Positions 990-63,248 of a stretch of 64,000 bases of DNA are shown one piece after another; positions within the stretch are counted from its first letter, which is position 1, and every line of letters begins with the position of its first letter. This DNA is from Candidatus Berkelbacteria bacterium RIFCSPLOWO2_01_FULL_50_28 (lineage in GTDB: Bacteria; Patescibacteriota; UBA1384; 2-12-FULL-50-11): NCBI GenBank assembly GCA_001774395.1, contig MEZX01000002.1:302101-366100 (forward strand), in the 5' to 3' direction. The notes beneath the pieces are model-generated. The model saw only the letters and a list, made by a program, of their open reading frames with translations. It did not search any database and was not told the DNA's origin. The translations under genes were made by a program, and so were the position numbers.

Positions 990-1223
990 ATGAAAAAAGA
1001 AATCCACCCCCAGTACTTTCCCAACTGCAAGGTAACTTGCGCTTGTGGCAATACATTCACGCTCGGCGCAACTGTGTCCGAACTACGGGTTGAAATCTGC
1101 TCCAACTGCCACCCAATCTATACGGGCAAAGTAAAATACATCGATACGGCCGGACGGTTGGATAAGTTCAAGACGAGAATGGAAAAATCGCGCTCAATTA
1201 AGGAAGGAACAGCCAAGAAATGA
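990..1223 (+). CDS. rpmE: 50S ribosomal protein L31
   Basis: 77 aa starting MKKEIHPQY. Contains CxCG...CSNCHP zinc-ribbon motifs typical of L31. Confidence 0.85.
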
Positions 1224-1323
1224 GTTACCAGTTACCAGTTACCAAGTTTGAAAATTGTTTTATTGAAAATTTATTGAAAATTGAAAACTGTGAATTGAAA
1301 ACTGCTCAAGACGGAGGCTTGAG

Positions 1324-2202: not shown

Positions 2203-2218
2203 TGCTCTCGTGTATCTT

Positions 2219-2241
2219 GAAAATTGTAAATTGTAAATTGA
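2219..2241 (+). repeat. AT-rich motif GAAAATTGTAAATTGTAAATTGA
   Basis: Identical 21-mers on the minus strand at 43467..43488 and 47682..47703, where it encodes KIVNCKL at gene starts. Partial copy at 3515..3535 before rseP. Related TGAAAATTGAAAACTG at 1260..1300. Confidence 0.8.
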
Positions 2242-2293
2242 TAGCGGCCGAGGTAAATGAGGGAGCTATGGAGGCGAAAGCCGACAAAATTGT
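2241..2293. repeat. 53-bp inverted-repeat arm (left), partner at 3371..3423
   Basis: GATAGCGGCCGAGGTAAATGAGGGAGCTATGGAGGCGAAAGCCGACAAAATTG. Its reverse complement recurs with one mismatch after frr, so the pair brackets tsf-frr. Confidence 0.85.
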
Positions 2294-2314
2294 TCAAACC
2301 GGAGGTTTGAAGTA

Positions 2315-2815: not shown

Positions 2816-3367
2816 ATGTCGGCAATTCTTTCCGTAAAAACAGAGATGAGTAGAGTCCTCCAGGTTCTGGAGGAGGATTTACGAACCCTGCGACCCGGCC
2901 GCGCATCCGCCGAACTTGTTACCAGCCTACCGGTGGACGTTTACGGTCAAAAAATGTCTATCCAACAGCTGGCTTCCATCTCTAACGACGAGCAGGGCAA
3001 CCTCATCTTGCAGCCGTGGGACAAGTCGACAATTGGTGCCGTAGAACAAGCAGTCCGAGTCAGCCAGCTTGGTTTCTCCGTCGTGAATATCGGGGACAGC
3101 CTAAAGCTGACGGTACCGCCGCTCTCGCAGGAACGTCGGCTGGAAATGGTAAAACTGGTTGGTCAAAAAGGAGAAGCGGCTCGAATCCAGTTGCGTCAGA
3201 TTCGGGGTGATGCTCACCAGGCGGCCACCAAAGAAAAAACCAACGGAACGATGCGCGAGGATGAGCTAAGTCGATATACCAAAGAGCTTAACGATAAAAT
3301 TGACGAGAATAATAAGCAGATAAAAGAGCTAGTAGAGCGGAAAGAAAAAGAGCTAATGACAGTATGA
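2816..3367 (+). CDS. frr: ribosome recycling factor
   Basis: 183 aa with the RPGRAS motif, VPPLSQERRLEMVK, and a C-terminal coiled-coil KEKELM. Follows tsf directly; pyrH is absent between them. Confidence 0.85.
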   Translation: MSAILSVKTEMSRVLQVLEEDLRTLRPGRASAELVTSLPVDVYGQKMSIQQLASISNDEQGNLILQPWDKSTIGAVEQAVRVSQLGFSVVNIGDSLKLTVPPLSQERRLEMVKLVGQKGEAARIQLRQIRGDAHQAATKEKTNGTMREDELSRYTKELNDKIDENNKQIKELVERKEKELMTV

Positions 3368-3369
3368 GA

Positions 3370-3475
3370 GGCAATTTTGTCGGCTTTCGCCTCCATAGCT
3401 CCCTCATTTACCTCGGTCGCTATCAGTTTTCAGTTTTGCAATTTTCAATAAATATCCAATGCTTCAATTTTCAAA
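3370..3475. repeat. ~100-bp intergenic repeat element (full copy)
   Basis: Contains the right IR arm plus GCTATCAGTTTTCAGTTTTGCAATTTTCAATAAATATCCAATGCTTCAATTTTCAA. Homologous to 59655..59750. Confidence 0.8.
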
Positions 3476-3553
3476 CATTAAAACACTGGAAACTGTAAAT
3501 TCAATGAAAATTAGAAATTGTAAATTGATAATTCTCAAAACAGCCAAAATAAA

Positions 3554-4645
3554 ATGGCTGTAACCTTGTTAGTCTTCCTGGCTGTTTTGGGCGTTATGGT
3601 CTTTGTCCACGAGCTGGGGCATTTCCTGGTGGCCAAACGTAGCGGCGTAAGAGTGGAAGAATTTGCTTTTGGCTTTCGACCGCGTCTTTGGAGTAAGACC
3701 GTCGGTGAAACGACCTACGCGATAAATCTGATCCCGCTTGGGGGTTACGTTAAAATGTTCGGCGAAGCTGATGGCCAGACTGGGCCGCGATCATTCAAAG
3801 CTAAAAAACCATCCACCCGGCTAGCAATTCTAGTGGCCGGTGCAACGATGAACTTGCTGATGGCCTGGGTGATCCTGACGATGCTATTTATTACCGGGTT
3901 CCAGCCTTTCACTCCTAACGCTTCCAAGAACCCCTTTATCGTCGAAAAACCATCAGTAGCGGTTGCTAGTGTTATAGCTAAAAGTCCAGCCGAGAAGAGC
4001 GGCTTTAAGGTAGAAGATATAATTTTAGCCGTCAACGGACAGTCGCTAGACGGCGGATTAGACTTCATCAATCAGATTCGGGCGCTCAACGGCCAAACAG
4101 CTATCGTTACGGTTACGCGCTCTGGGCAGGAGCTGAAGTTATTAGTTACCCCTCGAGTCAACCCACCGCCCGGGCAAGGAGCAATTGGGGTAGCCATCGG
4201 TCAAATTGGCCAAGTCAGGTCTACTTGGTTCAAAGCACCAGTCGCCGCCGTTTATGAAACTGGCCGAGTTATCGGTATCTCGGCAGTGGGCTTTGCCGAC
4301 TTCGTAAAAAATCTCGTTGTACGGCAGGAAGTCTCCGACGACGTTACGGGTATTGTTGGAGTTGGGCAGCTGACGGGTATCGCCAGACGAATGGGCTTCG
4401 AGTACCTGGCACAATTAGTGGCTCTGATTTCCATTGGCTTAGGGGTGATCAATCTGATGCCGATCCTGCCGCTCGATGGTGGTCATATCGCGATTATCGG
4501 CTATGAAAGAATTGCCCGTCGACCGCTAACTGAGCGACAGTTCTCTATATTTGCCAGCTTTGGGCTAGCATTCATTCTACTTATGTTTCTGGTGGTGACG
4601 TTCAAAGACTTTGTTCGCTTTGATGTAATTGGTAGAATCTTCTAA
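3554..4645 (+). CDS. rseP: RIP zinc metalloprotease RseP/RasP (site-2 protease)
   Basis: HELGHF zinc motif in the first TM segment. Central PDZ domain. C-terminal NLMPILPLDGGH motif. Confidence 0.85.
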   Translation: MAVTLLVFLAVLGVMVFVHELGHFLVAKRSGVRVEEFAFGFRPRLWSKTVGETTYAINLIPLGGYVKMFGEADGQTGPRSFKAKKPSTRLAILVAGATMNLLMAWVILTMLFITGFQPFTPNASKNPFIVEKPSVAVASVIAKSPAEKSGFKVEDIILAVNGQSLDGGLDFINQIRALNGQTAIVTVTRSGQELKLLVTPRVNPPPGQGAIGVAIGQIGQVRSTWFKAPVAAVYETGRVIGISAVGFADFVKNLVVRQEVSDDVTGIVGVGQLTGIARRMGFEYLAQLVALISIGLGVINLMPILPLDGGHIAIIGYERIARRPLTERQFSIFASFGLAFILLMFLVVTFKDFVRFDVIGRIF

Positions 4646-5868: not shown

Positions 5869-5956
5869 AGTTTGAAATAGTTTTTTGGGGCTTGCCCCGC
5901 ACCTCGAAACCTGATTGCAAATTTCTGACATCAGAATATTGCAAGAGGTTGAGCTG

Positions 5957-5970
5957 GTGCGGGGTTGACA
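5957..5970 (+). promoter_or_regulatory. GTGCGGGGTTGACA motif copy upstream of the small acidic ORF, with an inverted partner CCCCGCAC at 5895..5902
   Basis: The two sites are the arms of a ~75-nt imperfect hairpin (5895..5970). TTGACA-N17-TTACTC follows. Confidence 0.4.
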
Positions 5971-6056
5971 GGCTTGCTACCCTGTTGTTACTCTGAAGTA
6001 AGTAAGTGCCCTTTGCGGGCGGCAGATTTTTTCTGCTTAAACACAAGGAGGTTCAG

Positions 6057-6182
6057 ATGAATGATTTGAACACCGCTGTACCGGCGGCCGAGGGTGAAGA
6101 AAAACCCGAGGAAGAAACCGATACAGACAAACCCGTAGAAGGCGCTCCAGTCGAAGAGACAACACCAGAGCAGCCGCTGTAA
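6057..6182 (+). CDS. small acidic protein (41 aa, Glu/Pro/Thr-rich), possible leader or small protein
   Basis: Perfect SD AAGGAGG at 6044-6050, 6 nt before the ATG. The ORF MNDLNTAVPAAEGEEKPEEETDTDKPVEGAPVEETTPEQPL is followed by an intrinsic terminator. Not in the ORF track because it is under 60 aa. Confidence 0.4.
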   Translation: MNDLNTAVPAAEGEEKPEEETDTDKPVEGAPVEETTPEQPL

Positions 6183-6205
6183 ACTTCCCTTCTTGGGAAT
6201 ACAGA

Positions 6206-6233
6206 GAACCCGCTAAGCGCGGGTTTTTTGTTT
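6206..6233 (+). terminator. rho-independent terminator
   Basis: GC stem AACCCGC/GCGGGTT with a 5-nt loop, followed by TTTTTTGTTT. Confidence 0.6.
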
Positions 6234-6260
6234 AAGGTGAAACTTTGGTAGGCTGGTAGT

Positions 6261-11973: not shown

Positions 11974-13146
11974 CTAATAGGTCGCTGTGCAGACGTAAGT
12001 AATCGTGTCGGTATACGATCCGGCTGGTGCCAAACCAGAAACAGCCGCTTTATGGACGATGGTCAGAATTCTGCTGGCTAAGGCACCGCTAGCGGCAGCG
12101 ATGGATATTGCCGCACCAGCGCCGACCTCTAAACCTCCCATTTCGTTAGCACCACCGGAAGCATCGAACCGCCCGTCGACCGTTAAGGCCGCACCCGAAC
12201 CACCGCCACTGGAAGCGGATACTCCAAAACCGTCAGTCGCCGCTGCTAGGGTGACGATGTTACCATAAGCTCCATCGGCTGAACCAATTAAGTATGTTGT
12301 GCCAGCTGACTTATACAGTCCTGGGTTGACCGCATTACCAGCATCGTAAACAATAATATTTAAACCACCCTGGCCGTTGGAGCTGGCAGTGATGGTAGTG
12401 CTGGTATCAGATGTTGAGATTGCACCAGTTGTCAAAGAAGAAAAAGTTGTTGTCATGCCAGTAAAAGTACAGGTAATAGAAGGGTCAACGGTGGCGTTAA
12501 CCGTCACATCGTTGTCGGCGATGACTTCTAGAGCCAGTGTGCCAGTGTCAGTGAAACCACCGCCACCGGCCAGGGTAACTTTCGCGTCAGTCACATTTTC
12601 GGCCGCCGTTTGGTTGGTGATTTGGTCGTTACCAGCGGCGCCGCTAGTAGCGTTGGTGCCGATTTCAATCGTGACGATCGATCCAGCCGCGATGGTCGCA
12701 TCAGTTGCACAACGAGTGAAGGTGAAACCGATCGGATCAACAATATCAGCCGTAGTAATTTCGATTTCAATGGCCGCTCCCGAGCAGCCACCGCTAGCGA
12801 CCATGGTTTGATCAACACCGTCGTCAGTGACATCGAAATCTTCCGGTTCACTATTCAGAAAACCCGCTCCCGTAAATCCGGCCGGAAAAGCCAGCGCCAA
12901 GGTCTCACCGGCCGCCCAGCCATCAGTAATGGTAAAGGTAAAAGTATGGTTTGCCACGACAGACTCCTTCATCGTCGACAGAACGTCAGAAAACGATGTA
13001 ACTGGAGCGGCAAAAGCCGAAGGCGTATAAGGTAGAAGTAGACTAAGTATCGCGACCGAGACTATCAGTCGTGCTAATCTAACCCGCAAACCCTCTTTTC
13101 CCTCTCGTCGCATTCTTAGTTTAGCTTCTCTCGCTTTGTAATACAT
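11974..13146 (-). CDS. secreted ~390-aa protein sharing the C-terminal domain of the giant proteins (WxL-like?), copy B1
   Basis: Starts MYYKAREAKLR..., like 43995..45182. Has a TM/signal anchor and a Thr/Gly/Ala-rich beta body. C-terminus ...YTDTITYVCTATY. Start is 10 nt after the giant-gene stop. Confidence 0.55.
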   Translation of the reverse strand: MYYKAREAKLRMRREGKEGLRVRLARLIVSVAILSLLLPYTPSAFAAPVTSFSDVLSTMKESVVANHTFTFTITDGWAAGETLALAFPAGFTGAGFLNSEPEDFDVTDDGVDQTMVASGGCSGAAIEIEITTADIVDPIGFTFTRCATDATIAAGSIVTIEIGTNATSGAAGNDQITNQTAAENVTDAKVTLAGGGGFTDTGTLALEVIADNDVTVNATVDPSITCTFTGMTTTFSSLTTGAISTSDTSTTITASSNGQGGLNIIVYDAGNAVNPGLYKSAGTTYLIGSADGAYGNIVTLAAATDGFGVSASSGGGSGAALTVDGRFDASGGANEMGGLEVGAGAAISIAAASGALASRILTIVHKAAVSGLAPAGSYTDTITYVCTATY

Positions 13147-13156
13147 GTCAAGCCAA

Positions 13157-16100
13157 TCAAAAGGTTCCCGTCAATATATACAGCACCTCGGTTGTGTAAG
13201 GGTTGGCTTCTTGAAGCTCGCTAACGGAGACTTTGTGCGTAATGGTAAACGCTTCGTTGGTAACTGGGCCGCTCGTGCCGTCAACGGCCGTCGTGTGATC
13301 GGCGACAATATCCCCGAATTCAGTCAATCTCAAAGGCGCATAAAGCGTGCCGCCGCTAAAAATGTTGACGCCTTGAATTGTCGTGTCGTCGGAGGTGTAG
13401 CCGTAACCGCAATTGGTGCTCGGGGTACAAGTGCCACCTGGCCAAGCCCCGGGGGAAGCGTACGAGCCGCCCTCAAACATCGGGATGGTTTTAATGCCCT
13501 TGGTTAGGAGTGAGCTGGCGTACTGGCGGATAACATAACCGCCATAAGCATTAGTGCTGGAGGTCAGAGTAAGAGTCTTGGAGTCGGTTCGGTTATTACC
13601 GTTGTTAAGATTTGCAAAAGTTATCGTGACAGCGCCGAGCGACAAGCTAATCGTTGGTAGAACCGATTGGCCGTTGGAGGAAGTGACGCCCGAAGTGTTA
13701 GTAGCGTTATCAACCGCTCGGACATTGAAGAAGTAATTCTGGTTGGTTCGCAATATTAAACTAGTTGAGGTGACCGATTCGGTTGTTGAATTATCGGTCC
13801 AGGTTTTAATATCGGTCCCACCGGCTGTGGTACCAATTGAATATTGATACTTATTTAGTCCCGAGGCATCGCAGGTGTAAGCATCCCAGTTAGCCGAGAC
13901 GGAAGTGAGGGAGCCGTCATTATACGATGCGTCAACATCCTCAACCGTGCCGTCGTAAATGCTAGAACCGTAAGTGCAAGCGGTGGTGTCGACACCAAAA
14001 TCCCGATCAGCCGGGTTGGTTGGTGGGTTTTCAGTGTTACCGCCGTAACCGGTCCAGCTGGAGTAGGCCGTGGCGGCGTCTTTCACCTGGGCTTGCCAGT
14101 GATATTGGGTACCATCAACCAAACCGCTAATAGTTACGGTTACCGTGACTGGCGTACCAGTGTAGGCAACTCCCGAACCGCATAAGTCCCCGCCGTCAAC
14201 TGAAGATAGGGCAGTAGCGACGGGATCTTTTTCAACACAAAGATAGAGTGTGTCAGCGGCGTCAGGGTCGGAAGCCAGAGCGGTAAATTTGACTGAAGCT
14301 TCGTTGGTCCAATCGCCAGTAGCTAAGACTGTATCGTCGGTTTTCATTTGAACTAAACTTGATGGGGCAATTGGTGCGCTTGTCCAGTGCAGGAAACCGA
14401 GAGTATCGCTGCCACCGTCACCAGTGTCGGAATCGGACGCCTCGCAGGATGCCCAGCCGGTACAAGTGGCCGGATAGAGAACCCAGTAGTTACCAGCGGC
14501 CGGAGCCCCAGTGGCGATTTGAGTGACGGAGTATTCTGGCACATTGTCTGAAGCTTCGAGGAAGATCATGTTGTCCCAGGTCTTGGCTGGAGCACCGGTC
14601 CCGATTAACGATCCGTGAACCTTCATATATGTATCGGTGGCTCCAACATTCTGGAAGTTGTCGAACTGACCGTCATCAAGATTAGTGAGGGTTGCTCCAC
14701 TTTGAAGATCCAGGCCGGTACCGCCGCTGGTGCCACCGAGGTAACTGAATTTGTAGTACTGGGCGTCGATGGTTCCCGCCACATCGAAGTGATATCCACC
14801 ACTAGCGCCACGAGTAACAGTAGAGAGATTTGTCGAAGTAGTTTGACCCTTCATCTCCAGGGTTTTGCCACTGCCAACCGTGAAGATGTCACCGTCTTGC
14901 ATCATCGTCATCGGTTTGATGACTGAAGTAGAGTTGTCAGCATCAAAGGCGGTAAAGGTGTAAGTGGCATTCAAGGCATACGGAGTGGCGCCGCAATCAA
15001 CAGTGAATTTGGTGTTAACAGCCCCGGTACTGTCGGTAAACAGAGTGCCCGTTGTTAGGTCACCAACATCGGTACCGTTGCGGTAAACATCCATTACCGC
15101 TTGGCTTGTTACACAACTAGCGCCGACGCCAGCGGTTTTGGTGACGAGTTTGTAAGCGTACGGGCCTCCAGACAGATCGGCCGGAGCGGACAGGTCGTAA
15201 GCGAGGTTAGTGTCTTCGGTGCCGGTCCCAGAATACCCGTGAGCGGTAACAGATTTCTCCCAAAGATTATTGGCGTAGTTAAACTTGTCAGTCGATTCCA
15301 CTTGCGGACTCTCGGCCGTATCGGCCGGAATGGCATATTCGCCCCAAATCTTCGTTGCGCCAGCCGAGGTGTCGTGCTTACGGGAGACGATGTACGCCCC
15401 AGCGACAGTCACCCCAGTCACTTCGGTGGAGGAAGAGAGGGTAGTGTTGTAGAGCGAGAGGGTGTGAGCGCCAGCACCAGCGAAAAGAACATCTGCCGAG
15501 GTGTTAGGAGCAGTGCCGTAAACATCACTAATCACCACATTGCCGGTGGCGGTGGTATTATCAACAGCTAAGCCATACGACTGCCCACCACTCTGATTGC
15601 CGGTAAAAGTGTTGTTGGAGACGCCGTAAATAAGGATGCCGTAGGTACCGTTGTCATTGGTGGTGTTGGAAGTGAAGGTATTTCTGCTAGCGCTGGTAGT
15701 AAGTGCGATACCATATGTCCCGTTACCGGTAACGGTATTAGATGTAAAGGAGTTATTAGTGACATTGTTGACATTGAAACCGTAGCCACTATTACCAAGG
15801 GCGGAGTTAGAAGTGAAGGTGTTGCTGTTGGCGCTGTTTTGCGTTAAAAAGCCACCGCTAGCATTACCAATAGCGGAGTTGGAAGTGAGGGTGTTATTGG
15901 TACTGGAGGAGAGGAGGTAGAAGCCGTAACTAGTATTACCGGTGGAGACATTGGAAGTCAGGGTGTTATTGGCAGAGCTGGCGTTGAAATAGAAACCATA
16001 GCCAGCGTTACCGGTGGTAGTGTTGGAAGTGAAGGTGTTGCTGTTGGCGGTGGAATTGAGGAAGAAGCCACTTGCAAGGTTACTGCTGACTGCGTTAGAG

Positions 16101-41837: not shown

Positions 41838-41844
41838 ACTCTAA

Positions 41845-41889
41845 AACTCCCCCTCTCCCCTGTAAGTGGATAAAAAGTAACCCTCCATG
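41845..41889 (-). promoter_or_regulatory. conserved 45-nt leader/promoter-proximal element, copy upstream of the NYN gene
   Basis: ACTCCCCCTCTCCCCTGTAAGTGGATA...AACCCTCCATGT (plus strand). Near-identical to 60990..61034. On the coding strand it gives a purine-rich GGGGAGAGGGGGAG tract just 5' of the ATG. Confidence 0.5.
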
Positions 41890-42038
41890 TGATTTCAATA
41901 TGAAATATTAACAGTTAAATGTCAAAGAGTACCGAACCTGGGGAAAATGGCAAAAATTAAGACTAAGAGTCAGAGATAATTTAATCTTATGTAAATAAAG
42001 TAACTTTTAGTTGAGGCACAGTAGATCAGCTCAAAGAG

Positions 42039-42410
42039 TCAACGACGGTTTTTGAGAGTAAGAACGCTTGCACCAAGGATATTTGCAATTTCTTTGAGTT
42101 CAATTGCTAAAGATGCGATTTGTTCCTTGTATTCCACGGTAGTTTGATCGATGATAATTAACCAGTAGTCTGTCTCGTTGGCTGACTTGAGGGCGATTTG
42201 AAAAAAGCGAAGATAATCCCGCCTTGAGCTTGAAGACTTTGCTTCGTGAACGTTGGCTCCTATCGAAGTAGCGCTCCGTAGTAGTTGGTCGGCAATCGAT
42301 CGAAGATATGGCTTCCGGTTAATCAACTCACATAACTTTACAGTTCTAACGGAAAAAGCAATCAATCTCTTATAAAACTGCTCTTTAAATTTTTGTTTAT
42401 CATTTTCCAT
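42039..42410 (-). CDS. four-helix-bundle protein (TIGR02436 / 23S rRNA intervening-sequence protein family, Avd-like)
   Basis: 123 aa with LLRSATSIGANVHEA...RRDYLRFFQIALKSANETDYWL, the hallmark motif of this family. Confidence 0.75.
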   Translation of the reverse strand: MENDKQKFKEQFYKRLIAFSVRTVKLCELINRKPYLRSIADQLLRSATSIGANVHEAKSSSSRRDYLRFFQIALKSANETDYWLIIIDQTTVEYKEQIASLAIELKEIANILGASVLTLKNRR

Positions 42411-42441
42411 TTTCGTATTTACATTTTAATTTTACCACTAG

Positions 42442-42516: not shown

Positions 42517-43491
42517 CTAACCCATTCTCCGGATAGATCGGGGGGCTTTGGCGGCTCGGAGGAGTTTGGCGAATTTGCGTTTCTGACGCTTGCGGTAGAT
42601 GAATAAGAGGACAAACAGGATTAGTAGTGCGATGCAAAGAATAATTAGCCACATCGGGAAGACATAGAAAACTAACTCCGAGCTCAGCTGGTCGCCTTTT
42701 TCGCCGTAGAGGATATTTAGGGTGGCGACATAACGACCGATCTTCAACGGCTGATCGTAGGATTGAGTAATTAAACGATCGGCCTTCGGAAAAATGTTTT
42801 TCTGATCGAAATCGATGCTGGCGGTCTTACGGCCGAAGATGTTAGTCAGGGTGATAAAGCCTTTTGGTTTGATATGGACAGAACCGTTGTTGTGGATTCG
42901 GGAATTGAACGTGATAGGTGAGTGTTCAAAACGTATTTTATCGACTTTAAATTCTTTAACATAAGCCGAGTAGCTGATATCACCAGCCACAGCTACCAGA
43001 ATTAAGCTACCAACCTTTGTTCTCGTAACGGCACCCGTGCCGCTAACTTTGTCGTTGTTTGCTAAATAGGCCAGAATTGAGCCGTATTGACCGCCTGGTT
43101 CAGCGTTGACGGGGATAGTGATAACGAACTTAACGACTTGTGTCTGTAAGGGGGTTAGGGTGAACTTCGACGGCGTAATCTTCGTCCAGTTTTTTAGGAA
43201 ATAAATTGAGTCATCTTCCGCGACGATTTTAGCTTGTCCGAGTTCGTTGCCAACGAACGGCTGGATTCCCATCTGATATTTTTGGACAATCCCGCTGGTG
43301 TTAACAACTTTCATTGAGCTCTTTATGGTATCGCCGGGCTTGGCAGAGAGCTCAAAGAGCGGTGGAGAAATGGAAACTTTTGCTTGGTCTACAGTCGCTT
43401 CCTGAGCCCGGATATTGGCTGGCAAGACAGAAAAAACTAATACCAAGACCACCAGCGCTAAAATTCTCAATTTACAATTTACAATTTTCAT
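42517..43491 (-). CDS. DUF916/DUF3324-like cell-surface protein, copy A'
   Basis: Signal peptide MKIVNCKLRILALVVLVLVF. Block ITIPVNAEPGGQYGSILAYL. C-terminal TM plus tail RKRQKRK. The first 7 codons are the intergenic-type AAAATTGTAAATTGTAAATTG motif. Confidence 0.55.
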   Translation of the reverse strand: MKIVNCKLRILALVVLVLVFSVLPANIRAQEATVDQAKVSISPPLFELSAKPGDTIKSSMKVVNTSGIVQKYQMGIQPFVGNELGQAKIVAEDDSIYFLKNWTKITPSKFTLTPLQTQVVKFVITIPVNAEPGGQYGSILAYLANNDKVSGTGAVTRTKVGSLILVAVAGDISYSAYVKEFKVDKIRFEHSPITFNSRIHNNGSVHIKPKGFITLTNIFGRKTASIDFDQKNIFPKADRLITQSYDQPLKIGRYVATLNILYGEKGDQLSSELVFYVFPMWLIILCIALLILFVLLFIYRKRQKRKFAKLLRAAKAPRSIRRMG

Positions 43492-43886
43492 TAAATTTTC
43501 AATTTATCAATTTTCAGTGTACCCGTATTTTGGCGTAAGCTCGATGTTATTTTCTGAAAGATTAGGGTTAACTCCTGACATTCGCTGACGATGGGCTCAG
43601 GTGGTTCAGCCAATGATGGCAGTGCTGTCCTAAGCATTCGGAGCCAATGTCTAGTTTCTTGAGCCTCTTTTTTACAGATGAAGATCTTATTACTAAAGTC
43701 TTTGCGCGAGCTAGCAGCGTTGGCTTCAGAGTAGTTTGCCCCGATGCTGGTTGCAGAGCGAATCAGCTGATTAATAATAGGGCTACAAATAGAGTCCTGC
43801 TTAATCGTTCGGCACAAAATAATCACCGATTCGCCAAACTGCGCCGTTCTTTCCTCTAAATCATATTTGCTTGATGGTTGTGTCAT
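43491..43886 (-). CDS. four-helix-bundle protein (TIGR02436 family, Avd-like), second copy
   Basis: LIRSATSIGANYSEANAASSRKDF...AQETRHWL. Confidence 0.7.
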   Translation of the reverse strand: MTQPSSKYDLEERTAQFGESVIILCRTIKQDSICSPIINQLIRSATSIGANYSEANAASSRKDFSNKIFICKKEAQETRHWLRMLRTALPSLAEPPEPIVSECQELTLIFQKITSSLRQNTGTLKIDKLKI

Positions 43887-43994
43887 CCAATTGATAATTA
43901 GCTCATTGTAAATTTATTGTAAATTGCAAAATTGAGAACTGAAAATTATTACCCATTTTCAAACTATACACCCCAGTTGTCTCAACTCAACACG

Positions 43995-46350: not shown

Positions 46351-46431
46351 TAGAGCGACCTGATTTAACAATGATTTTATTTTTCCCCCTCGCACATACT
46401 ATATATACATTGAAGCGTATCCAACAGATGT

Positions 46432-46444
46432 GTCAACCCCGCAC
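46432..46444 (-). promoter_or_regulatory. GTGCGGGGTTGAC motif copy (minus orientation), just downstream of the GIY-YIG gene and upstream of the B2 gene
   Basis: Plus strand reads GTCAACCCCGCAC. Contains a -35-like TTGACA. A TATATA lies 23 nt downstream on the coding strand. Confidence 0.4.
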
Positions 46445-46447
46445 TTT

Positions 46448-46705
46448 TCAACCGTCTTGAAGGCAATGCCCAATACGCTTTTTCAACCTTGCGTAAGACT
46501 GACCAAATTGTTTGAGCTTCTTCTCTCGATCGAGCGCATCTAGTCTCGAGGCATAACCTTCAAGGTAGACAATCTTCCACGGTCGGTAAGGTTTTGTCGC
46601 AACTGACTTACCTTCGTTGTGATCGAGTAGTCTTTTCCGCAAGTTGTTCGTCTGCCCGAAGTAAAGTCGCTGTTCTTTTCCGAGTAGTACATACACCCAA
46701 TGCAT
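46448..46705 (-). CDS. GIY-YIG nuclease-family small protein (YhbQ/UPF0213-like, ~85 aa)
   Basis: MHWVYVLLGKEQRLYFGQTNNLRKRLLDHNEG...RPWKIVYLEGYASRLDALDREKKLK. Start trimmed to the family-typical M-x-W-V-Y-V-L. Confidence 0.7.
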   Translation of the reverse strand: MHWVYVLLGKEQRLYFGQTNNLRKRLLDHNEGKSVATKPYRPWKIVYLEGYASRLDALDREKKLKQFGQSYARLKKRIGHCLQDG

Positions 46706-46738
46706 AAGTTGATTGTAGCAACTTGCGACGGTTGAATA

Positions 46739-46758
46739 GTGCGGGGTCAACCCCACAC
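46739..46758 (-). promoter_or_regulatory. GTGYGGGGTTGACCCCGCAC palindromic copy of the motif, upstream of the GIY-YIG gene
   Basis: Near-perfect inverted repeat GTGTGGGG-TTGA-CCCCGCAC in the coding-strand view. Confidence 0.4.
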
Positions 46759-46770
46759 TAATTTTTCCGA

Positions 46771-47721
46771 TCATCTGCTCATAGCTCGCAAAAGTTTAGC
46801 TCGACGCCGGCGGAAGTACACGGTTGAACCAACCGCCAGAATTGCCAATAGCAGGACTATAATAATGAAGGGCCAGGGGATGGAGACAAATCGAGAACTG
46901 GCCACTAAGATTTTTCCGTCTTGCTTAAGAGTGAATTTGGCGTCGTAGACCCCGGGCCAGATTGTGCCGGTATAGGCGCTGATATATTGCCTCGAAGACT
47001 CGGGCATTAGGACCGAGCTCGCTAACTGGGTGACCATCTTTTGCTCACCCCAGGTTGGCGTTAAAGTCAGATCGCCATCAGCGAAAAAGAAAAATCCGGT
47101 CGGGTTACTAATTTCGGCCAGGAACGGTACCGGTGTGCTAACAACTATTTTCGGTGTCTGGAACGAGCTGATGCTCAAGCTTTCAATGGTTGGCTTCGTG
47201 GTCGAATCGACCGAAAGCAAAAACGAGGTGCTTAATGCTGGAATAATTCGGGTATTGGCGTTTTCGTCAAAATAATTTGCTGGTAGGCGAGCCTGGAAAA
47301 TCAGGGCGGCGCTGTAACCACCCGGGACAGTACCCTTGGGCGCTAGGATGGTTACCTGAACTTCTTTACTGCCTTGGGCGTCCAAAATGAGGTCTGGACT
47401 GTCGAGCGTTAGCCATTCAACACCTGAGTGTGGCCTTGGCTCGGCCGTAAATTCGGGTGATCCGAGGTTGTTAATGCCACTAATACTAAATTTAGAAGCG
47501 GACAATGGGATTGGTTCCTTCCCAAGATTGGTAACTTTAATCTTCACGATCGTTTTCTCGCCTGGTTTAACGGTCTGCTGAACTAAGCCAGGGCTAATTG
47601 ACAGTGTCGGGCTAATGGCGCCTTGGCCTGACGCTGACAAGGTGAATGCAAATACCGACATTAAGATTGCCAGCGTTAGAATTTTCAATTTACAATTTAC
47701 AATTTTATCGCGTTCGCTCAT
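46771..47721 (-). CDS. DUF916/DUF3324-like cell-surface protein, copy A2
   Basis: Start set at MSERDKIVNCKLKILTLAILMSVFAFTLSASG (signal peptide). Upstream ORF extension is AT-rich repeat sequence. Block VTILAPKGTVPGGYSAALIF. C-terminal TM plus tail RRRRAK. Confidence 0.5.
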   Translation of the reverse strand: MSERDKIVNCKLKILTLAILMSVFAFTLSASGQGAISPTLSISPGLVQQTVKPGEKTIVKIKVTNLGKEPIPLSASKFSISGINNLGSPEFTAEPRPHSGVEWLTLDSPDLILDAQGSKEVQVTILAPKGTVPGGYSAALIFQARLPANYFDENANTRIIPALSTSFLLSVDSTTKPTIESLSISSFQTPKIVVSTPVPFLAEISNPTGFFFFADGDLTLTPTWGEQKMVTQLASSVLMPESSRQYISAYTGTIWPGVYDAKFTLKQDGKILVASSRFVSIPWPFIIIVLLLAILAVGSTVYFRRRRAKLLRAMSR

Positions 47722-47892
47722 TTTTCGTTCTGGCGAACTCAAAATCATTGAATTTTCAATCATCAAATTTTAATTTATCGGTTTTACCACATTCTGTCAT
47801 TTGAAATTCAATCGAAATTTGAAATTCGCCTCTCGACTCCGCTCGAGGCGACCTGAGCACCGTCGAATGGTCGAAATTTGAAATTACTTTTC

Positions 47893-50800
47893 TCATGGAA
47901 AAGTTGCTGTTATCACATAAACGACGTCAGCTGTGTAATCGCCGTTAGCTTGGGTGTTCGATGGGTAGAGGCGGTAAGTAATATCGTTGGTGGCGCCTGT
48001 GGCCGGTGCGGTTCGGTCGGCAACTGGGTCGCCCGGGCCGGTGTGAGAAAAGCCAGCAAATTTAGCCCCGCCGTTGGTAAAACGATCAGCCGTGCCGCCG
48101 GTTAACGATGAGTCGTCGGTTGAATAGCCAAAGCCGTAAGACCCAGCACTGAAGGTTGTCGGAGTCGCGTTCGTACCCGTCCAATCGGCTAGTGTCACCC
48201 CACCGAAGCGGACATTAGTCATCGCTTGGGTTGACCAAGCGTAAACGACATAGCCGTTCAAGGCATTACTAGAAGCGGTCAGCGTCGATGTTTGATCACT
48301 GGGGTTGGAGCCGGGGTTAATGGTACCGAAGTCTTTCGAAGTGGAGTCCAGGCCTAGGGTTAGTGTCTGACCAAAAATCCAGTTAACGGTGTTACCGCAG
48401 TCGGTGTTGGTGCCGTCGCTAGCGATAATTGTTGATCCGCCAGAGGCATCAGATCGAGAGACATTAACATACGAGGTTTTTATTTGGTCGTTACCAACGG
48501 CAGCGACATTTAGGAGCCAACTACCGGTAATGGCGGAGTTTCTGAAGTATAGTCTCGTTCCAACCGCTTGCCCGTTCCAGTTCATATTGTTAATCGTATA
48601 GGTGGCGCCGGATTCGTATTCTACTTTCACACTAGCTGTGGTGATGGTGTAGTTGTTGGTGACGGTTGCGGCGGCGTTAAAGTCGACTCCTGCCACCCAG
48701 CCCGTTCGTTCACAGTCGGATGCAATCGTGCCGGAGCTGTTAGTAATGGTCAGGTCGTAAAACGCGTTGGTTGTCAGCATCCCACCAGACAAGGTTTGGG
48801 TACTGGTGCCACTCAAAGTGGTCGTGCCGGTATTAGCGGTAAAGGTACCCGAGTTAGCGTAGTTGCCTTTAATTGCAAATGTTGCGGCTGAGGAAGCTTG
48901 GTAAGTTTGATTAGCTCCGATAGTAAGGTTGCCGGTAACGGTGATGGCAGGATCACTCGTTTCAGCATTAACAACGGCTGATCCAGCGCCAGTCAGGGTG
49001 AAATTGCCTAAAACTTCAGTTCCAGCACATGCGTTATGTACTAAGTAGCTATTAGCATAGAAAAGGTTGTAGGTGTCAACTTCGATATCGTATACAGTTA
49101 CGGTCTCACTCACTTTTTGGATACTTGTAATAGGTTCCGTTCCAGAATAGGTGGCAAGCAGATCGCCAACCCGCAGTTCCTCAACAGCTTTTGAGCTGTG
49201 GTCAGCCATAATAAAGACGTGATTTGCTGTGGCCTGCACCTGGTTGTTAATGATGTAGTACGCATCTTTAGTCCCAATAACTGTTCCAACAACTGGAGAT
49301 ATGACTACTTGGTTACTACTGAGGTCGTAGGATTTGACAAGGTCACCTTCTTTAAGCTCTTCAATTGGCGTACTTCCCGTGGGGGTAAGTACTTGGGTCC
49401 CAGCAAGGAAGGACGTGGCCGAAGTGGTCATTGTGTAGGTCGGTGTACCAGAGGCCGGGCTGGTTTGGAGGTTGTAATAAGCTCTCGTGCCACAACCACT
49501 AGTGATGTTGGCGCTAGTGGTATTCTCGTAGCTAATCGTGGAAGCGTTGGCTGTAAATAACCCGGTCTTTGAGAAAGGAGTACCGCTACCAGTTAAGTGG
49601 TAAGTGCGATTGCCACCATCAAAGGTGGTGGCGGCCGAAGAAATACTCATGACGCTACTAACCGTAATATCTCCGGTTCCACCAGTTTGAGTGGTAATGG
49701 TAGCGGCGGGAGAAGCGGTAAACGTAAGGCTACTAAACGTCCAAGCGGTTGAGCCAGAAGTGGTGCCAAAGTTTTTAGCGCCTGCCACACTTTGGGTGAA
49801 TGTGCCGCCGGTGAGGTTGATGATACCTGCAGTTCCGGCGACGTTACCATTGACAGTAATATTCTGAGTACCGAGCAGCGATCCGGCAGTCATCGTCAGG
49901 TCGTTGGTAACAACCAAGGCGTCCTGAGGTGCCCAGCCACCGCCCGAACCGCTGAAAGTTAGGTTGTAGAATGAGTCACCAGCAGATTGGATAGTCTTAC
50001 TAGTGGCGGTTGCGTTAAAGATAAAAGTAGATGTCCCAGCGTTAAACACCGCATTACTTTCATTCGTAAAATTTGTTCCGACATAGACTGTTGAGGATCC
50101 GGCGGTAAAAATCGGTGCCCCGGTATTACCAGCTACTATAAAAGTCCCGACAGTAAGAGTTTGGTTGGCGGTGTCAAACTCACTATTTCGAGAGTTTCCC
50201 CAGCCAAACCGTAACGATCCGGTGATGGTAGTTGTTCCTGCCAAGGAGATTTTATAGCCGGTGCTGATATTGTCTGTAATGGTGGTATTGTAGGTAAACG
50301 CCGGGAGGGTGAAGTTGGCAGATCCGCTGAAGTCGATGCTTCCATTACCGAGTCCAAAAGTTCCAGCAGGGTCAAGACTGAAACTCCCCCCAGTTTTGTT
50401 CATACCTTTTGAATTAAAGTCAAAGGTTCCTGTCCCGAGAGTGAATGTGCCGTTATGGGCAGCACCGTTGTTTGTTATCAGTTGTGTGGTGTTGCCACTT
50501 TGGCCAACGGTCAAGTTGTAAAATCTGGGCTCCCAAGCATTTGTCGAGCCATTTTTGATAGTTTTTGTACCCGTCCCATTCATCACAACCGTTGAGGTAC
50601 CTTCGACGATACTGACACTGTCTTGAGCAACTGCACTAGTATCCCAATTACCGGAAACCGTAATAATTGAAGCCCGTTCTGTGAGAGACCAGGTGCCGGC
50701 GTTACCTGTCAGGTTGCCGCCAATAGTTAGAGCGTAGTTAAAGGTAGTATTGGTATCAAAAGTGCCGTTAGTAATATCGAAATTGTTAGTGACGCTCATC

Positions 50801-53800
50801 GCGTCTTGGAGCGTCCAGCCCCCACCCGAACCGTTGAAAATAATATTATATAATGCTGAGCCGCCAGTCATGGTTCCAGTGAGGGTTCGGCCGGTACTCG
50901 TTGAGCTGAAGGTCACTGTCCCTGTGCGAGCGGTAAAGGTACCGGAATTTGACCAGTTACCCCCAACTGTTAAGGCATAAGGAGTGGCCGTCACATCAAA
51001 CTCACCCGCGGTGATAGTGAGATTACCACCATTATCTGTAAGGGTTGCTTCCTCTAGCACATAAACCTCGGAACCGTTATTAACGGTTAGGTGGTGGTAG
51101 GTAGCGGACTGAACGGTTGAGTTGCCACCAGCGTTGTTGCCGGTGTAGGCGAAAGTGGAGGTAGCGGCAGTTAAGGCTCCAGCCGGGGAGGCGAGCAGTT
51201 GGAATGAGTCACCGGTTGTGCCACTTAAAGTCCAGGTGCGGTTACCAGCATCTAACGTTGTGGTGGCTCCAGAAGAATCACCGGATTTTCCAACCCTCAA
51301 AATGTCACTGACGGTTATTCCACCACTTCCACCTGTTTGGGTGGTAATAGTTCTTCCTGCTGCTGGGGCACCGAGCGAGTTAGAAAAAGTTAGATCATAA
51401 AATGTCCAAGCAGTACTGCCACTTGTTGTGCCAAAGTTTTTATTAACCCCTACCCGCTGTTCAAACGTCCCCCCAGTTAAGCTGATAACCCCTGAGGTTC
51501 CAGCGACATTGCCGTTGACGGTGATGTTTTGGGTACCGTTCAAGGTGCCAGCGGTCATCGTGAGGTCGTTAGCAATTGCCACGGCTGCATCAGGTTGGAC
51601 GGTTGCGGCTCCGTTCACGATCACGTTGTAAAGGGTCTGGCTGTTAGGAGAGTATGTCGAGGTACCAGTCGACGGGGCAAAGGTGAATGTTGAAGTGCCG
51701 TCATCGACCGCTAATGTTCCGGTGCCGTTGACGAACTTAACATGGCCGGTTGCTGAGATGAAAGCGGTTTGGAAATTGGCAGTATGAGTTCCGCCATTGG
51801 AGTTGACGTAAAAAGTGTCGGTAGCACTCGCGCGATTGAAGGTGGCGGTGCTTGATCCCCAATTCGAACTCGTGGCGCCATTGTCGGTTGAGTCGCCCTG
51901 GACCCATTTATCTGCGTTAATGGTGTAGTTTTGGGTATTAAAGGTTGCCGTTCCCGTAGCGTCTGCTTTTACCTGCGTGTATCCGCTGGTAGTAATATTA
52001 CCCCCGACATTAAAAGTCACCAGTCCCGCGACATCGCTGTGCATCAGGATACTCCAGGTGCCGTAGTTGGTGGCACCAGTGACGGTAACAGTCGCGGCGC
52101 TTAGTTTACGCAACTGGAAGGTGGCATTAGAACCAGATAGGGTTGCTCCTGTTCCTAATACTAAGTCGGCTCCAGCTGTTCTAAACAGTTCAAATTCACA
52201 GGTGACCGAACACGTCATCGTGCCGCCACTGGCATCACCGATGGTTAAAATGCCAAAGACATCGGTTCGGGCTCTGGTCATCGTGGTTGTTTTGGTGTTG
52301 TAGGCAACGGTCAGGTTTTCAAACTGGGTCGTACCCGTACCTGCGATATTGCCGTCACCATTAAGCTGAACGGTTGAGCTGTCGCGGGTGAAGACACCGT
52401 TTAGGTCCACCGTCCAGTGGCGACTGACGGTGATTGTTGAAGTCCGGGCTCGGAAAACAGCACTAGCACTACCAGCGATTGCGACATCACGGGTAACGTT
52501 AACGGCGTGGTTACTAGTAGTGGTGTCAAATGTTCCGAGAGTAATAGTAAGATCGTTAGTGATGATGACCGCGCCACTAGGTGTTACTGTTCCCCCAGAG
52601 CCGTTCAAGATCACGTTATATAGAGATTGACCATTCGGAGCGTAAGTCTTAGAACCGGAAGTATGGACCCAGGTAATTGTCGAAGTTCCAGGGGTTACCG
52701 TTATAGCGGGAGTGCCGTTAATAAACAGAACGGCGCCGGAAACCGTCACTGACGAGCTACCAAGATTAAGGGTACTGCTTGTTCCGCCGTAGGTAGCGTG
52801 AGGAAGGATGGAGTTGGTTGTACTACTCAAAGTAACGGTGCTAGAGCCGAAGCCAACAGCAACCGGGCCATCACGCCCAGCATTGCCATCACCGAACTGC
52901 AAAGTAGCCGCGGTTAGAGCGAAGTTTTGGGTGTTGACAGTTGTTCCAGTTACAGCCGTATTGGCCGCAACATAGACACTTCCGGTAGTTGTAATATCAC
53001 CAGCGAAATTATAAATGCTGTTATTAGCAGTTGCGTACGGTTCAATGGCCCAGTTCCCGTAATTGCCACCGGCCATTGTGAAAGTGGAGCCAGCCCCTCC
53101 GTTAATAAGGAAGCTCATTACAGAGCCACCAGTGAGCGTGGTAGCGGCGCCAAAGACGAGAGGAGTTTTGCTAATACTACCAGCGAGGTTAATGTACGAG
53201 GCGGCCTGACTGACCGTTCCCCCATTCAGGGTCATCACTCCATTAACTTGGTTCATACTGGTGCCGACGGTAATCGTTTTACCCGAGCCGGCCAACTGAA
53301 GGTTGTACATCTGGCTAGCAGAGTTGAGGGTACCGGTGTTGTCAGCCGTACCAGTCATATTAACCGTTGAGGCAGTGCCTTCGGTGAATTTGTTGCCAGT
53401 ATCGTTAAAATCGTTACCAACAGTAATTGTTGAACCGTTACCAATCAGAACAACGCCGGCAGTGTTAGCTAGCGTCAGGTCTCGAGCGACGTTAACGGCG
53501 TAGTTTGAGCCGGTCGTATCAAGCGATCCGTTGGTAACTGTCAGGTCTCGGCCGGTGCCGGTTGTACCTTCAAGGACGAAGGTTTCGGAGGAGTTGTTGG
53601 GGATTAGGTCGTAGTAAGTTGCCGACTGAATAGTTGTACTGCCAGCACCGTTATTGCCGGTGTAGGTGAAGGTTGAGCTGGCGGCGGTTAGTGATCCGGC
53701 GGGGGAAGCAAGTATTTGGAAAGAGTCACCAGTAGTACCAGACAGAGTCCAAGTGCGATTGCCGGCATCGAAGTAAGTGCCACAACCGTCAGCGGCCTTA

Positions 53801-60981: not shown

Positions 60982-60989
60982 ACCCTAAT

Positions 60990-61034
60990 ACTCCCCCTCT
61001 CCCCTGTAAGTGGATATAAACAAACCCTCCATGT
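60990..61034 (-). promoter_or_regulatory. conserved 45-nt leader/promoter-proximal element, copy upstream of the 13-kb giant gene
   Basis: Near-identical to 41845..41889. Followed upstream by the TTTGAACCTGTTAA...TTGACGAC box at 61062..61089. Confidence 0.5.
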
Positions 61035-61061
61035 AGATTAACAATGCCTAATTTCTGTGGG

Positions 61062-61089
61062 GTCGTCAACCTGATTTAACAGGTTCAAA
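61062..61089 (-). promoter_or_regulatory. shared upstream box TTTGAACCTGTTAA-N6-TTGACGAC, copy before the giant gene
   Basis: Matches 42442..42468. A -35-like TTGACG lies 17 nt before CATTGT. Confidence 0.4.
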
Positions 61090-61146
61090 ATTAGTTGACG
61101 ATTGATCAAAAAAAAGCTGTCTGGTTGGGTCTTGAGAGTTGGCTAT

Positions 61147-63095: not shown

Positions 63096-63204
63096 ACTTT
63101 TGCCCCCAACTCTTAGCTAGCTCAGCGGACTTGGCTCCATTTCTGGAGATTCCATAGGAGTATCGTCTAAACAAAAGTAAGGGTGAAGAGTTGTTAGTTG
63201 TTAA

Positions 63205-63217
63205 GTGCGGGGTTGAC
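63205..63217 (+). promoter_or_regulatory. GTGCGGGGTTGAC motif copy ~30 nt upstream of clpP
   Basis: Exact 13-mer shared with 5957..5970. Contains a -35-like TTGACT. Confidence 0.4.
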
Positions 63218-63248
63218 TTCTGTAAAGGGAACTTTACAATTTCTGTAA

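Follow-up and report, generated by a model that had tools for sequence, protein, structure and literature searches.

Why should a single AT-rich 22-mer stand in an intergenic spacer and also form the first codons of two paralogous genes? The question is raised by a 64,000-nt stretch of DNA (the window) from Candidatus Berkelbacteria bacterium RIFCSPLOWO2_01_FULL_50_28 (contig MEZX01000002.1, positions 302,101 to 366,100), the genome of an uncultured groundwater bacterium of the Candidate Phyla Radiation (CPR), where the motif AAAATTGTAAATTGTAAATTGA occurs exactly at 2220–2241 on the plus strand and at 43467–43488 and 47685–47706 on the minus strand. On balance, we favor the reading in which a dispersed palindromic repeat of intervening-sequence (IVS) type has the 22-mer array as its 3′ arm, the one nearer the gene. 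This reading draws on the observed architecture of the repeat, the relationships among its copies, their hairpin potential, the presence or absence of the array at orthologous loci and an orientation bias toward start codons. Complete copies are AU-rich hairpins of ~110–160 nt with a left arm of CAATTTW units and a right arm of TGWAAATTG units, and GC-rich hairpin modules or a small open reading frame (ORF; PF05635 IVP or GIY-YIG) sometimes lie between or beside the arms.

The 22-mer array and the hairpin repeat around it

The 22-mer consists of about three TGTAAAT or TGAAAAT units, that is, a TGWAAAT heptamer array, and Tandem Repeats Finder calls period-7 arrays of 3.4–6.9 copies at 2217–2240, 43468–43513 and 47676–47705. 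The number of copies expected by chance is 0 (100 dinucleotide shuffles), and the exact copies are accompanied by degenerate ones at 3507–3528 (two mismatches) and 1277–1298 (three mismatches). Of the 11 period-7 arrays, eight fall in or at the window's non-coding ~5% (binomial p 2e-8). By direct reading, TAA, TAA and TGA close two of the three frames of the 22-mer, and both paralogs use the one that stays open; unlike the 22-mer, pure (TGTAAAT)3 or (TGAAAAT)3 would close all three. Public gene calls put ORFs of 37 aa and 41 aa inside heptamer spacers or hairpins of two other loci (L139 8583–8696 and L138 16580–16705), which are likely annotation artefacts arising from this open frame.

An earlier note on this DNA, made from the letters alone, had listed the three exact copies and a partial one before rseP. 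The first stands as described, non-coding and after rpsB (17 nt past its stop and 73 nt ahead of the tsf ATG), as do the second and the partial copy, which ends 25 nt ahead of the ATG at 3554; the third had been placed at 47682–47703, 3 nt from its actual position. The four spacers that the note had named do consist of TGAAAAT/CAATTTT-type units, but its statement that such units fill most spacers was too strong, since they are carried by ~6–7 of roughly 16 spacers in the window. Spacers 898–989, 2768–2815, 5869–6260, 41838–42038, 46396–46447, 60982–61146 and 63096–63248 hold none of them.

The plus strand of the window carries rpmE, rpsB (1324–2202), tsf (2315–2767), frr (2816–3367) and rseP (3554–4645). 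The minus strand carries a 9303-aa gene, NYN, IVP1 (PF05635), paralog 1 (42517–43491), IVP2 (PF05635, 43491–43886), two ~400-aa paralogs, a small GIY-YIG gene, paralog 2 (46771–47721/47766) and a 4362-aa gene. Copies of the repeat outside the paralog cluster are as follows.

1221–1310, plus strand: arrays 5′ of rpsB, with AGTTACC three times, then TGAAAAT-type units that include the three-mismatch copy at 1277–1298; a GGAGG Shine-Dalgarno sequence comes next
2217–2241, plus strand: heptamer array TTGAAAATTGTAAATTGTAAATTGA holding the first exact copy, non-coding, in the rpsB–tsf gap
2217–2296, plus strand: left arm of the tsf–frr bracket, the array plus a GC-rich module GATAGCGGCCGAGG...GGCGAAAGCCGACAAAATTG
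3368–3447, plus strand: right arm of the tsf–frr bracket, the reverse complement of 2217–2296
3421–3539, plus strand: complete heptamer hairpin element in the frr–rseP spacer, left arm CAGTTTT/CAATTTT, right arm TGTAAAT/TGAAAAT, including 3507–3528
59640–59750, minus strand: third copy of the array and GC-rich module, in frame within the 4362-aa ORF (..IENSSIENSLKTDSDEAQRRSYGGEVRQNSKIENS..)

The 65-nt element made of the array and the GC-rich module thus occurs three times, twice inverted around tsf and frr and once inside the 4362-aa ORF. The two inverted copies, 2228–2292 and 3372–3436, are 94% complementary over 65 nt, and the inverted repeat extends over 65–78 nt with a predicted RNA duplex of dG −133 kcal/mol (z −24.6). 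If co-transcribed, this bracket would form a very long double-stranded RNA stem around two translation-factor genes. The bracket is absent from the related genome L121. The copy in the 4362-aa ORF lies ~410 codons into the frame and is free of stops; the homologue search for this site returned short partial matches only, and no orthologue spanning it was found. Elsewhere in the window, spacers at unrelated sites match one another over 53 nt and 44 nt at 85–86%.

CPR loci have the sense array as the 3′ arm and complementary CAATTTW units as the 5′ arm. In single-sequence folds, 10 of 14 copies form a single hairpin and 11 of 14 reach z ≤ −2.8, the best being z −9.5. At gathering thresholds, Rfam recognizes no known RNA family in the window.

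Two further loci, L138 and L139, match the window's first 10.9 kb with 0 mismatches and are therefore the same genome. Unit number does not differ between them in the aligned stretch, and their sole indel, at L138 16190–16361, is a GC-rich module (AATTTCCCCCTCGACTTCCCTCGGCTCCGCTCGGGACAGGTCGCTCGGGGTAAAC) of 55 nt copied in tandem, an indel among spacer modules at the level of the population. In the L121 spacer at 12841–13227, a composite module of ~90 nt (heptamer units plus GTCATGGTCGGGCTATTTTAAAAACCTCCGG) stands three times in tandem; thus, the modules can also amplify in tandem.

The copy in the 16S rRNA gene

The link to IVSs comes from a 16S rRNA gene (L137 10930–12832; Rfam SSU, 1418.7 bits) that we take to lie just past the right end of the window. 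Loci L136 and L137 encode the product of the window's clpP exactly, and L137 additionally has the 4362-aa ORF; both are taken as the rightward continuation of the window, joined by the proteins that they encode and not base by base. A tRNA gene follows the 16S gene at L137 13172–13243.

The 16S gene carries two insertions. The first, of 283 nt in helix 6, holds a GIY-YIG ORF whose product shares 47% identity with the window's own GIY-YIG protein. The second, of 141 nt, sits at the tip of helix 10 (SSU model positions ~188–192) and, together with the base of the helix (163 nt in all), folds into one hairpin with dG −59.2 kcal/mol and z −9.5. This helix-10 insertion is identical to window positions 3400–3545, the frr–rseP spacer, at 103 of 137 sites (75%), and the element at 3421–3539 is recovered as its homologue by nhmmer (9e-32). 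Their common sequence extends to non-periodic stretches such as TTTGCAATTTTCAATAAAT.T.CAATG..T.AATTTTCAAACATT. With the 16S gene as the BLASTN query, matches fall at window 1238–1297, 3427–3534 and 43462–43514 and in eight spacers of other loci, all of them via the helix-10 insertion only. Full-length copies found with nhmmer extend to Saccharibacteria, Magasanikbacteria, Curtissbacteria and Daviesbacteria, among other loci. The 16S copy is a helix-tip insertion and the window's own copies sit in mRNA spacers; taken together, the homology and the spacer copies point to the motif as the arm of an IVS-type hairpin repeat present in both rRNA and operon spacers.

The proteins encoded near the arrays are of the same kinds in both settings. 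IVP and GIY-YIG are the reported ORFs of non-intron rRNA insertions in CPR bacteria, whose rRNA also contains many short uncharacterized insertions below 200 bp that are presumed to be IVSs cleaved by RNase III (bioRxiv 10.1101/2024.02.27.582315). In addition to IVP2, which is described with paralog 1 below, the window has two such ORFs.

42039–42435, minus strand: IVP1 (PF05635), with a degenerate period-7 array at 42396–42435 over and upstream of its start
46448–46774, minus strand: small GIY-YIG ORF between paralog 2 and a 402-aa gene

It is conceivable, and we put it forward tentatively as something well short of probable, that one AU-rich heptamer-hairpin family moves between rRNA genes and operons and bears the same RNase III-type signal in both places. 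As such, rRNA IVSs and operon 'punctuation' would be one mobile system, able to donate start codons and signal-peptide n-regions.

The arrays could instead be plain heptanucleotide microsatellites that arose independently by slippage in AT-rich spacers, with neither element identity nor function, their similarity being convergent. Period 7 does dominate: the 953 kb examined contain 274 such arrays and no more than 41 of any other period, and the 109 distinct heptamer units mean that slippage alone can make such arrays. Heptamers are also over-represented in many bacteria (Mrázek et al. 2007, as summarized in PMC4679880 and PMC4692102). Unrelated heptamers, among them TAGTTAT, stand in spacers here as well: AGTTACC three times at 1223–1244 and AGTTGTT twice at 63189–63203 in the window, AAGTCTG and ATTAGTT at 14364–14571 and 16899–17000 in L121. 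This shows a general tendency of the lineage toward 7-nt repeats. However, the copies have complex, non-periodic sequence in common over 50–140 nt, an irregular CATTGAAAATTCATTGAAAATTG context recurs across CPR classes, GC-rich modules travel alongside the arrays, and array length is constant at the start of paralog 1 in four diverged orthologues. We consider independent slippage as the whole explanation improbable.

The start codons of the two paralogs

The coding use of the array is clearest at paralog 1, where it belongs to a cassette built around IVP2.

42517–43491, minus strand: paralog 1, a WxLIP/DUF916-like secreted protein in which codons 2–8 are the motif
43462–43516, minus strand: right (3′) arm of the IVP2 cassette, with the second exact copy (43467–43488) and the paralog-1 start
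43491–43886, minus strand: IVP2, a 23S-rRNA IVP gene (PF05635, E 5.6e-13)
43887–43965, minus strand: left (5′) arm of the IVP2 cassette, antisense units TTTTCAGTTCTCAATTTTGCAATTTACAATAAATTTACAATG

The paralog-1 ATG (43491–43489) directly precedes the motif, giving the product MKIVNCKLRIL, and overlaps the TAA stop of IVP2 by one A. The two flanks of IVP2 are predicted to pair with dG −43.6 kcal/mol and z −2.7 in the window; the corresponding z is −2.7 in L121 and −3.8 in L053. Intact cassettes are present in the window and L121. L127 and L128 hold decayed ones in which the arms are kept and the ORF is gone (L128 hairpin, dG −27.8 kcal/mol), and a further decayed cassette is found at L121 1996–2168. 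At the empty sites (L125a, L125b, L129 and L130), the stop of the upstream gene is followed after 7–50 nt by an ATG, and the left boundary of filled sites keeps homology to the empty-site start (GTATA..TTTGA(A/G)(A/G)ATGG). This suggests that the AT-rich first codons of paralog 1 were the place where the cassette inserted, with the right-arm ATG then taking over as the start.

N-termini encoded by the array are MKIVNCKLRI in the window, MKIENCKFKI in L121 and L124, MKTVNCKLRI in L126 and MKIENCKLEI in L127 and L128; KIANCKL (P0007) and RIGNWKL (P0017) are known from proteins only. Array-free orthologues begin MGKNFKF (L125b), MRVNYKF (L125a), MMKSNFN (L129) and MTIRIVA (L130). The V/E replacement coincides with the degenerate base of TGNAAAT (codons GTA and GAA in the fetched DNA), and the A and G variants, as judged from the two proteins, presumably do the same. 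Four diverged sequences (window, L121, L126 and L127/L128, at 70–83% protein identity) retain TTAATGAAAAYTG, the array length, the ATG and the open frame while differing by five non-synonymous changes and one synonymous change, and L126 does so without an IVP gene upstream. A TTG at the end of the motif was tried as the true start of paralog 1 and rejected: it is TTT in L121, which has no other good start. Because the ATG and frame are kept in the four orthologues and the TTG is absent from L121, the motif is probably translated in the paralog-1 lineage.

The situation at paralog 2 is different, and its start is uncertain.

46771–47721, minus strand: paralog 2, with its start at ATG 47721, TTG 47688 or TTG 47766
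47676–47706, minus strand: array with the third exact copy, its TTG AAA ATT 3′ end (47688–47680) being an alternative start
47708–47741, minus strand: 34-nt GC-rich hairpin module TGAGTTCGCCAGAACGAAAAATGAGCGAACGCGA, containing the in-frame ATG 47721–47719
47742–47892, minus strand: remainder of the spacer between the giant gene and paralog 2, a second GC-rich hairpin amid AATTTCA-type units, followed by sense units with homology to an IVP cassette's 3′ end

Here the motif is preceded by the codon GAT. An in-frame ATG comes no closer than five codons upstream (47721, MSERD-KIVNCKL), and the longest ORF begins at TTG 47766. Translation of the motif is unproven here because the in-frame ATG lies within a dispersed GC-rich module that is non-coding elsewhere in the genome: the same module and array recur at L138 15740–15805 in a non-coding context and the opposite orientation, with 82 of 110 nt identical (75%). 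In L121, the paralog-2 orthologue has a different, 33-nt GC-rich module inserted within the array. Common to the window and L121 is the end of the array, TTG AAA ATT (C/T)TA, from which a canonical MKIL(T/A)LAIL signal peptide would begin. Both also have the 3′ end of an IVP cassette (..ACCGATAAATTGAAAATT..AATGA..) upstream of paralog 2, and L121 keeps a remnant of the IVP 5′ end there (..KYDLEER..). From these remains, a decayed IVP cassette appears to stand upstream of paralog 2, as the intact one does upstream of paralog 1.

The earlier note had the motif directly following both starts and doubling as coding sequence in both genes; the first holds at paralog 1 and not at paralog 2, and the second is probable at the one and unproven at the other. 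The two genes are indeed paralogous, as it had proposed (BLASTP 25% identity over 294 aa, E 2e-11). Its label 'DUF916-like' is weak, with PF06030 found on paralog 1 only and below the cut-off (E 0.0012), yet PF06030 is precomputed on many orthologues.

Could KIVNCKL be a peptide conserved for its function, such as that of a sorting signal, with the DNA identity a by-product? Each paralog does have an ATG in the frame of the motif, and the copy in L037 (Magasanikbacteria) shares its frame with a signal-peptide-like ORF downstream. However, the paralogs agree at 22 of 22 nt despite their 25% protein identity, so the identity is recent and at the DNA level, as expected of repeat DNA and not of a conserved peptide. 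Orthologues carry V/E/A/G, I/T, L/F and R/K/E replacements or miss the segment altogether, the same DNA is non-coding at 2220–2241, and none of the orthologues examined retains KIVNCKL through other codons, so that the second outcome named in the note as refuting its view did not occur. A conserved peptide is largely refuted, and we give it hardly any credence.

Giant ORFs flank this WxLIP/DUF916-like cluster on the minus strand (13157–41068, 9303 aa; 47893–60981, 4362 aa). Both share many internal repeat families and are probably cell-surface proteins. A near-identical leader of ~55 nt (CATGGAGGGTT..TATCCACTTACAGGGGAGAGGGGGAGT.TTAG.GT) abuts the start codons of NYN and the 4362-aa gene (41838–41900 and 60982–61045, minus strand) and may be a common 5′ UTR or regulatory element. 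Over the window the cumulative GC skew climbs monotonically, and the idea of a replication origin or of iterons was rejected.

Array placement, proposed processing and known repeats

To place the array beyond this genome, we compared at least 120 public loci with the 20-mer core, taken from species-representative genomes of Patescibacteria, Bacteroidota/Prevotella, Cyanobacteria, Planctomycetota, Nitrospirota and others. A sense array ends within 80 nt of an ATG-initiated ORF at 47 of 111 loci, as against 23 of 109 for antisense arrays (Fisher p 8e-4), and within 20 nt at 33 of 111 against 8 of 109 (p 2e-5). This orientation bias means that placement is non-random relative to gene starts, the outcome that the positional check proposed in the earlier note was to decide. 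Shine-Dalgarno sequences are absent at rseP, paralog 1, paralog 2 and IVP1, as at most genes of the window; rpsB and tsf retain GGAGG.

The bias would also be expected of a translation-initiation element: a leader, AU-rich, unstructured and lacking a Shine-Dalgarno sequence, perhaps bound by S1 or another protein, that stops upstream frames (TAA/TGA), promotes the next start and is selected for doing so. Sense units stand just ahead of rpsB, tsf, rseP, IVP1, paralog 1 and paralog 2, the scarcity of Shine-Dalgarno sequences in the window agrees with such a role, and the same role is proposed, in the accounts of those repeats, for TAACTGA (PMC4679880) and for TTTTGAA/TTCAAAA in Nostoc (bioRxiv 10.1101/2022.06.06.494920). 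Yet copies also lie within 16S rRNA, within an ORF, and in antisense after stops and before IVP2; rpsB and tsf have their own GGAGG downstream of the array; and a sense array usually has an antisense partner arm by which it would be sequestered. An effect on initiation is perhaps secondary and exapted, and it is unlikely to be the reason why the repeat exists.

A site acting on DNA, whether a promoter, an UP element or a nucleoid-protein binding site, is a still poorer candidate, to which we assign very little weight. The arrays are AT-rich and upstream of genes, TTTTGAT heptads are regulator sites at the ctx promoter of Vibrio cholerae in one account (bioRxiv 10.1101/2021.05.14.444153), and the rseP-proximal array has a weak sigma-70-like match at 3504–3532 (ATGAAA-17-GATAAT, 9/12). 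That match lies at a degenerate copy and is the only one; at the three exact copies, no sense-strand match of at least 9/12 is found, which does not bear out the promoter or UP element proposed in the earlier note, although the test (sigma-70 consensus, 16–18 nt spacing) is weak, as the promoters of CPR bacteria may follow other rules. Two copies lie inside operons of overlapping or closely spaced genes, copies occur in rRNA and in an ORF, and better promoter candidates are found elsewhere (AGTGCGGGGTTGAC...TACAAT).

A separate motif, AGTG(C/T)GGGGTTGAC, recurs in the window at 5959 and 63207 (plus strand) and at 46756 and 46442 (minus strand), and also in L121 and L138. Its occurrence at clpP reads TTGACT-16-TACAAT and is followed by the ATG 8 nt past the −10 box; at the GIY-YIG gene, TACAAT lies 7 nt before the ATG. 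This spacing and the scarcity of Shine-Dalgarno sequences in the window suggest that leaderless mRNAs are frequent.

If the array is the arm of an IVS-type hairpin repeat, as we favor, its history and action might be as follows. Arrays would grow and vary by slippage, and the composite element would spread as selfish DNA through recombination or insertion at AT-rich, heptamer-like sites. In RNA, pairing of the arms would yield long, AU-rich helices, which RNase III may cut as in classical rRNA IVSs. Cleavage within operons would punctuate the polycistronic transcript (rpsB / tsf–frr / rseP; IVP / paralog 1). The next start codon would then directly follow an AU-rich leader lacking a Shine-Dalgarno sequence, which would fit an organism whose genes mostly lack one. 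The arm contains an ATG (A + TGAAAAT) and a single open frame with many Lys, Ile, Asn and Leu codons; this ATG would have become the start in the paralog-1 lineage, where the repeat would be translated as a positively charged signal-peptide n-region.

Several results weigh against this reading. RNAalifold found no consensus pairs on a MAFFT alignment of 14 copies, as gaps in the loop regions break the register. Some copies fold poorly, with z −0.8 for L138 16607–16714 and for L003 and z −2 to −3.2 for the frr–rseP spacer, and the paralog-2 copy has a weak left arm (z −2.0). If the paralog-1 start does lie in a stable helix, initiation would need that helix to be melted or cleaved. No target-site duplication is recognizable between filled and empty sites, where the AT-rich quasi-repeats make boundaries ambiguous, and no transposase partner was found, IVP and GIY-YIG being the sole cargo ORFs. 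No rnc gene is seen within the ~77 kb examined. The hairpin context is a minority outside CPR, with two or more antisense units upstream at 11 of 110 loci, and even an iterated HMM places an IVP gene near the 20-mer in no more than 3 of 120 loci. For this last reason, the idea that the motif always ends a mobile IVP cassette was rejected, although it holds locally at both paralogs. Carriage by phages was likewise rejected, a 24-mer having a single match in 2.9 million viral contigs.

[quoted passage not shown] With rRNA IVSs it shares a complete copy at a 16S helix tip (h10) in an extended stem-loop, a second insertion (h6) with a GIY-YIG ORF, and, in the window, complementary arms that enclose PF05635 and GIY-YIG ORFs, as in the classical layout of an IVS. 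In contrast to IVSs, the window copies all lie in protein-coding operons, their arms are made of heptamer units, and one arm has probably been recruited as coding sequence; excision by RNase III belongs to classical IVSs and is only a prediction for this repeat.

Start-proximal heptamers are described for TAACTGA in Beggiatoaceae, Cyanobacteria and Bacteroidetes (MacGregor 2015, PMC4679880) and for TTTTGAA/TTCAAAA in Nostoc PCC 7120 (bioRxiv 10.1101/2022.06.06.494920). As those accounts present them, they resemble the arrays here in their 7-nt units in 2–6 copies, their mostly intergenic position, forward and just upstream of starts that lack a Shine-Dalgarno sequence, their in-unit stops, their occasional overlap with first or last codons and with ribosomal-protein operons, and their scattered phylogeny. 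The unit sequence differs, and the units here are arms of a larger palindromic element with GC-rich modules and cargo ORFs. Forward repeats of the TAACTGA type stop all three frames, whereas the window 22-mer leaves one open, and no counterpart of the rRNA copy was seen in those accounts.

Long simple sequence repeats (LSSRs) and short tandemly repeated repetitive sequences (STRRs) are also tandem heptanucleotides over-represented intergenically, with many unit types per genome (Mrázek et al. 2007, in summary). The copies here differ in having non-periodic sequence and inverted arms in common, which points to copying of an element and not only to local slippage. Cyanobacterial STRR heptamers were reportedly described by Mazel et al. 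in 1990. MITEs, RPEs and the Coxiella MITEs (PMC5896051) are similarly small (<500 bp), palindromic, multi-copy and intergenic, are occasionally in frame in an ORF, and are present or absent at orthologous sites. The in-frame, stop-free copy at 59640–59750 may be RPE-like in this respect. Here, in contrast, no target-site duplication was recognized, no cognate transposase was found, and the arms are of low complexity in place of unique terminal inverted repeats. Repetitive extragenic palindromic sequences (REPs) and bacterial interspersed mosaic elements likewise form modular mosaics of short palindromes in the spacers of co-directional genes, with GC-rich hairpins in variable order; here an AT-rich heptamer array dominates in place of a GC-rich REP, and no RAYT was seen.

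The literature searched holds no case of the same hairpin family in a 16S helix and in operon spacers of a CPR genome, of IVP and GIY-YIG carried in both settings, or of an arm supplying a start codon and n-region. For genome annotation, the arrays are places where gene callers disagree on starts and call spurious ORFs within. They extend the phenomenon of start-proximal heptamer repeats from Beggiatoaceae, Cyanobacteria and Bacteroidetes to Patescibacteria. The repeat would tie the unexplained short insertions of CPR rRNA to spacer repeat DNA, and it offers a testable idea for a role, RNase III processing, and for the origin of IVSs. It may also illustrate how selfish repeat DNA turns coding, through an arm that brings an ATG and Lys-rich codons usable as a signal-peptide n-region.

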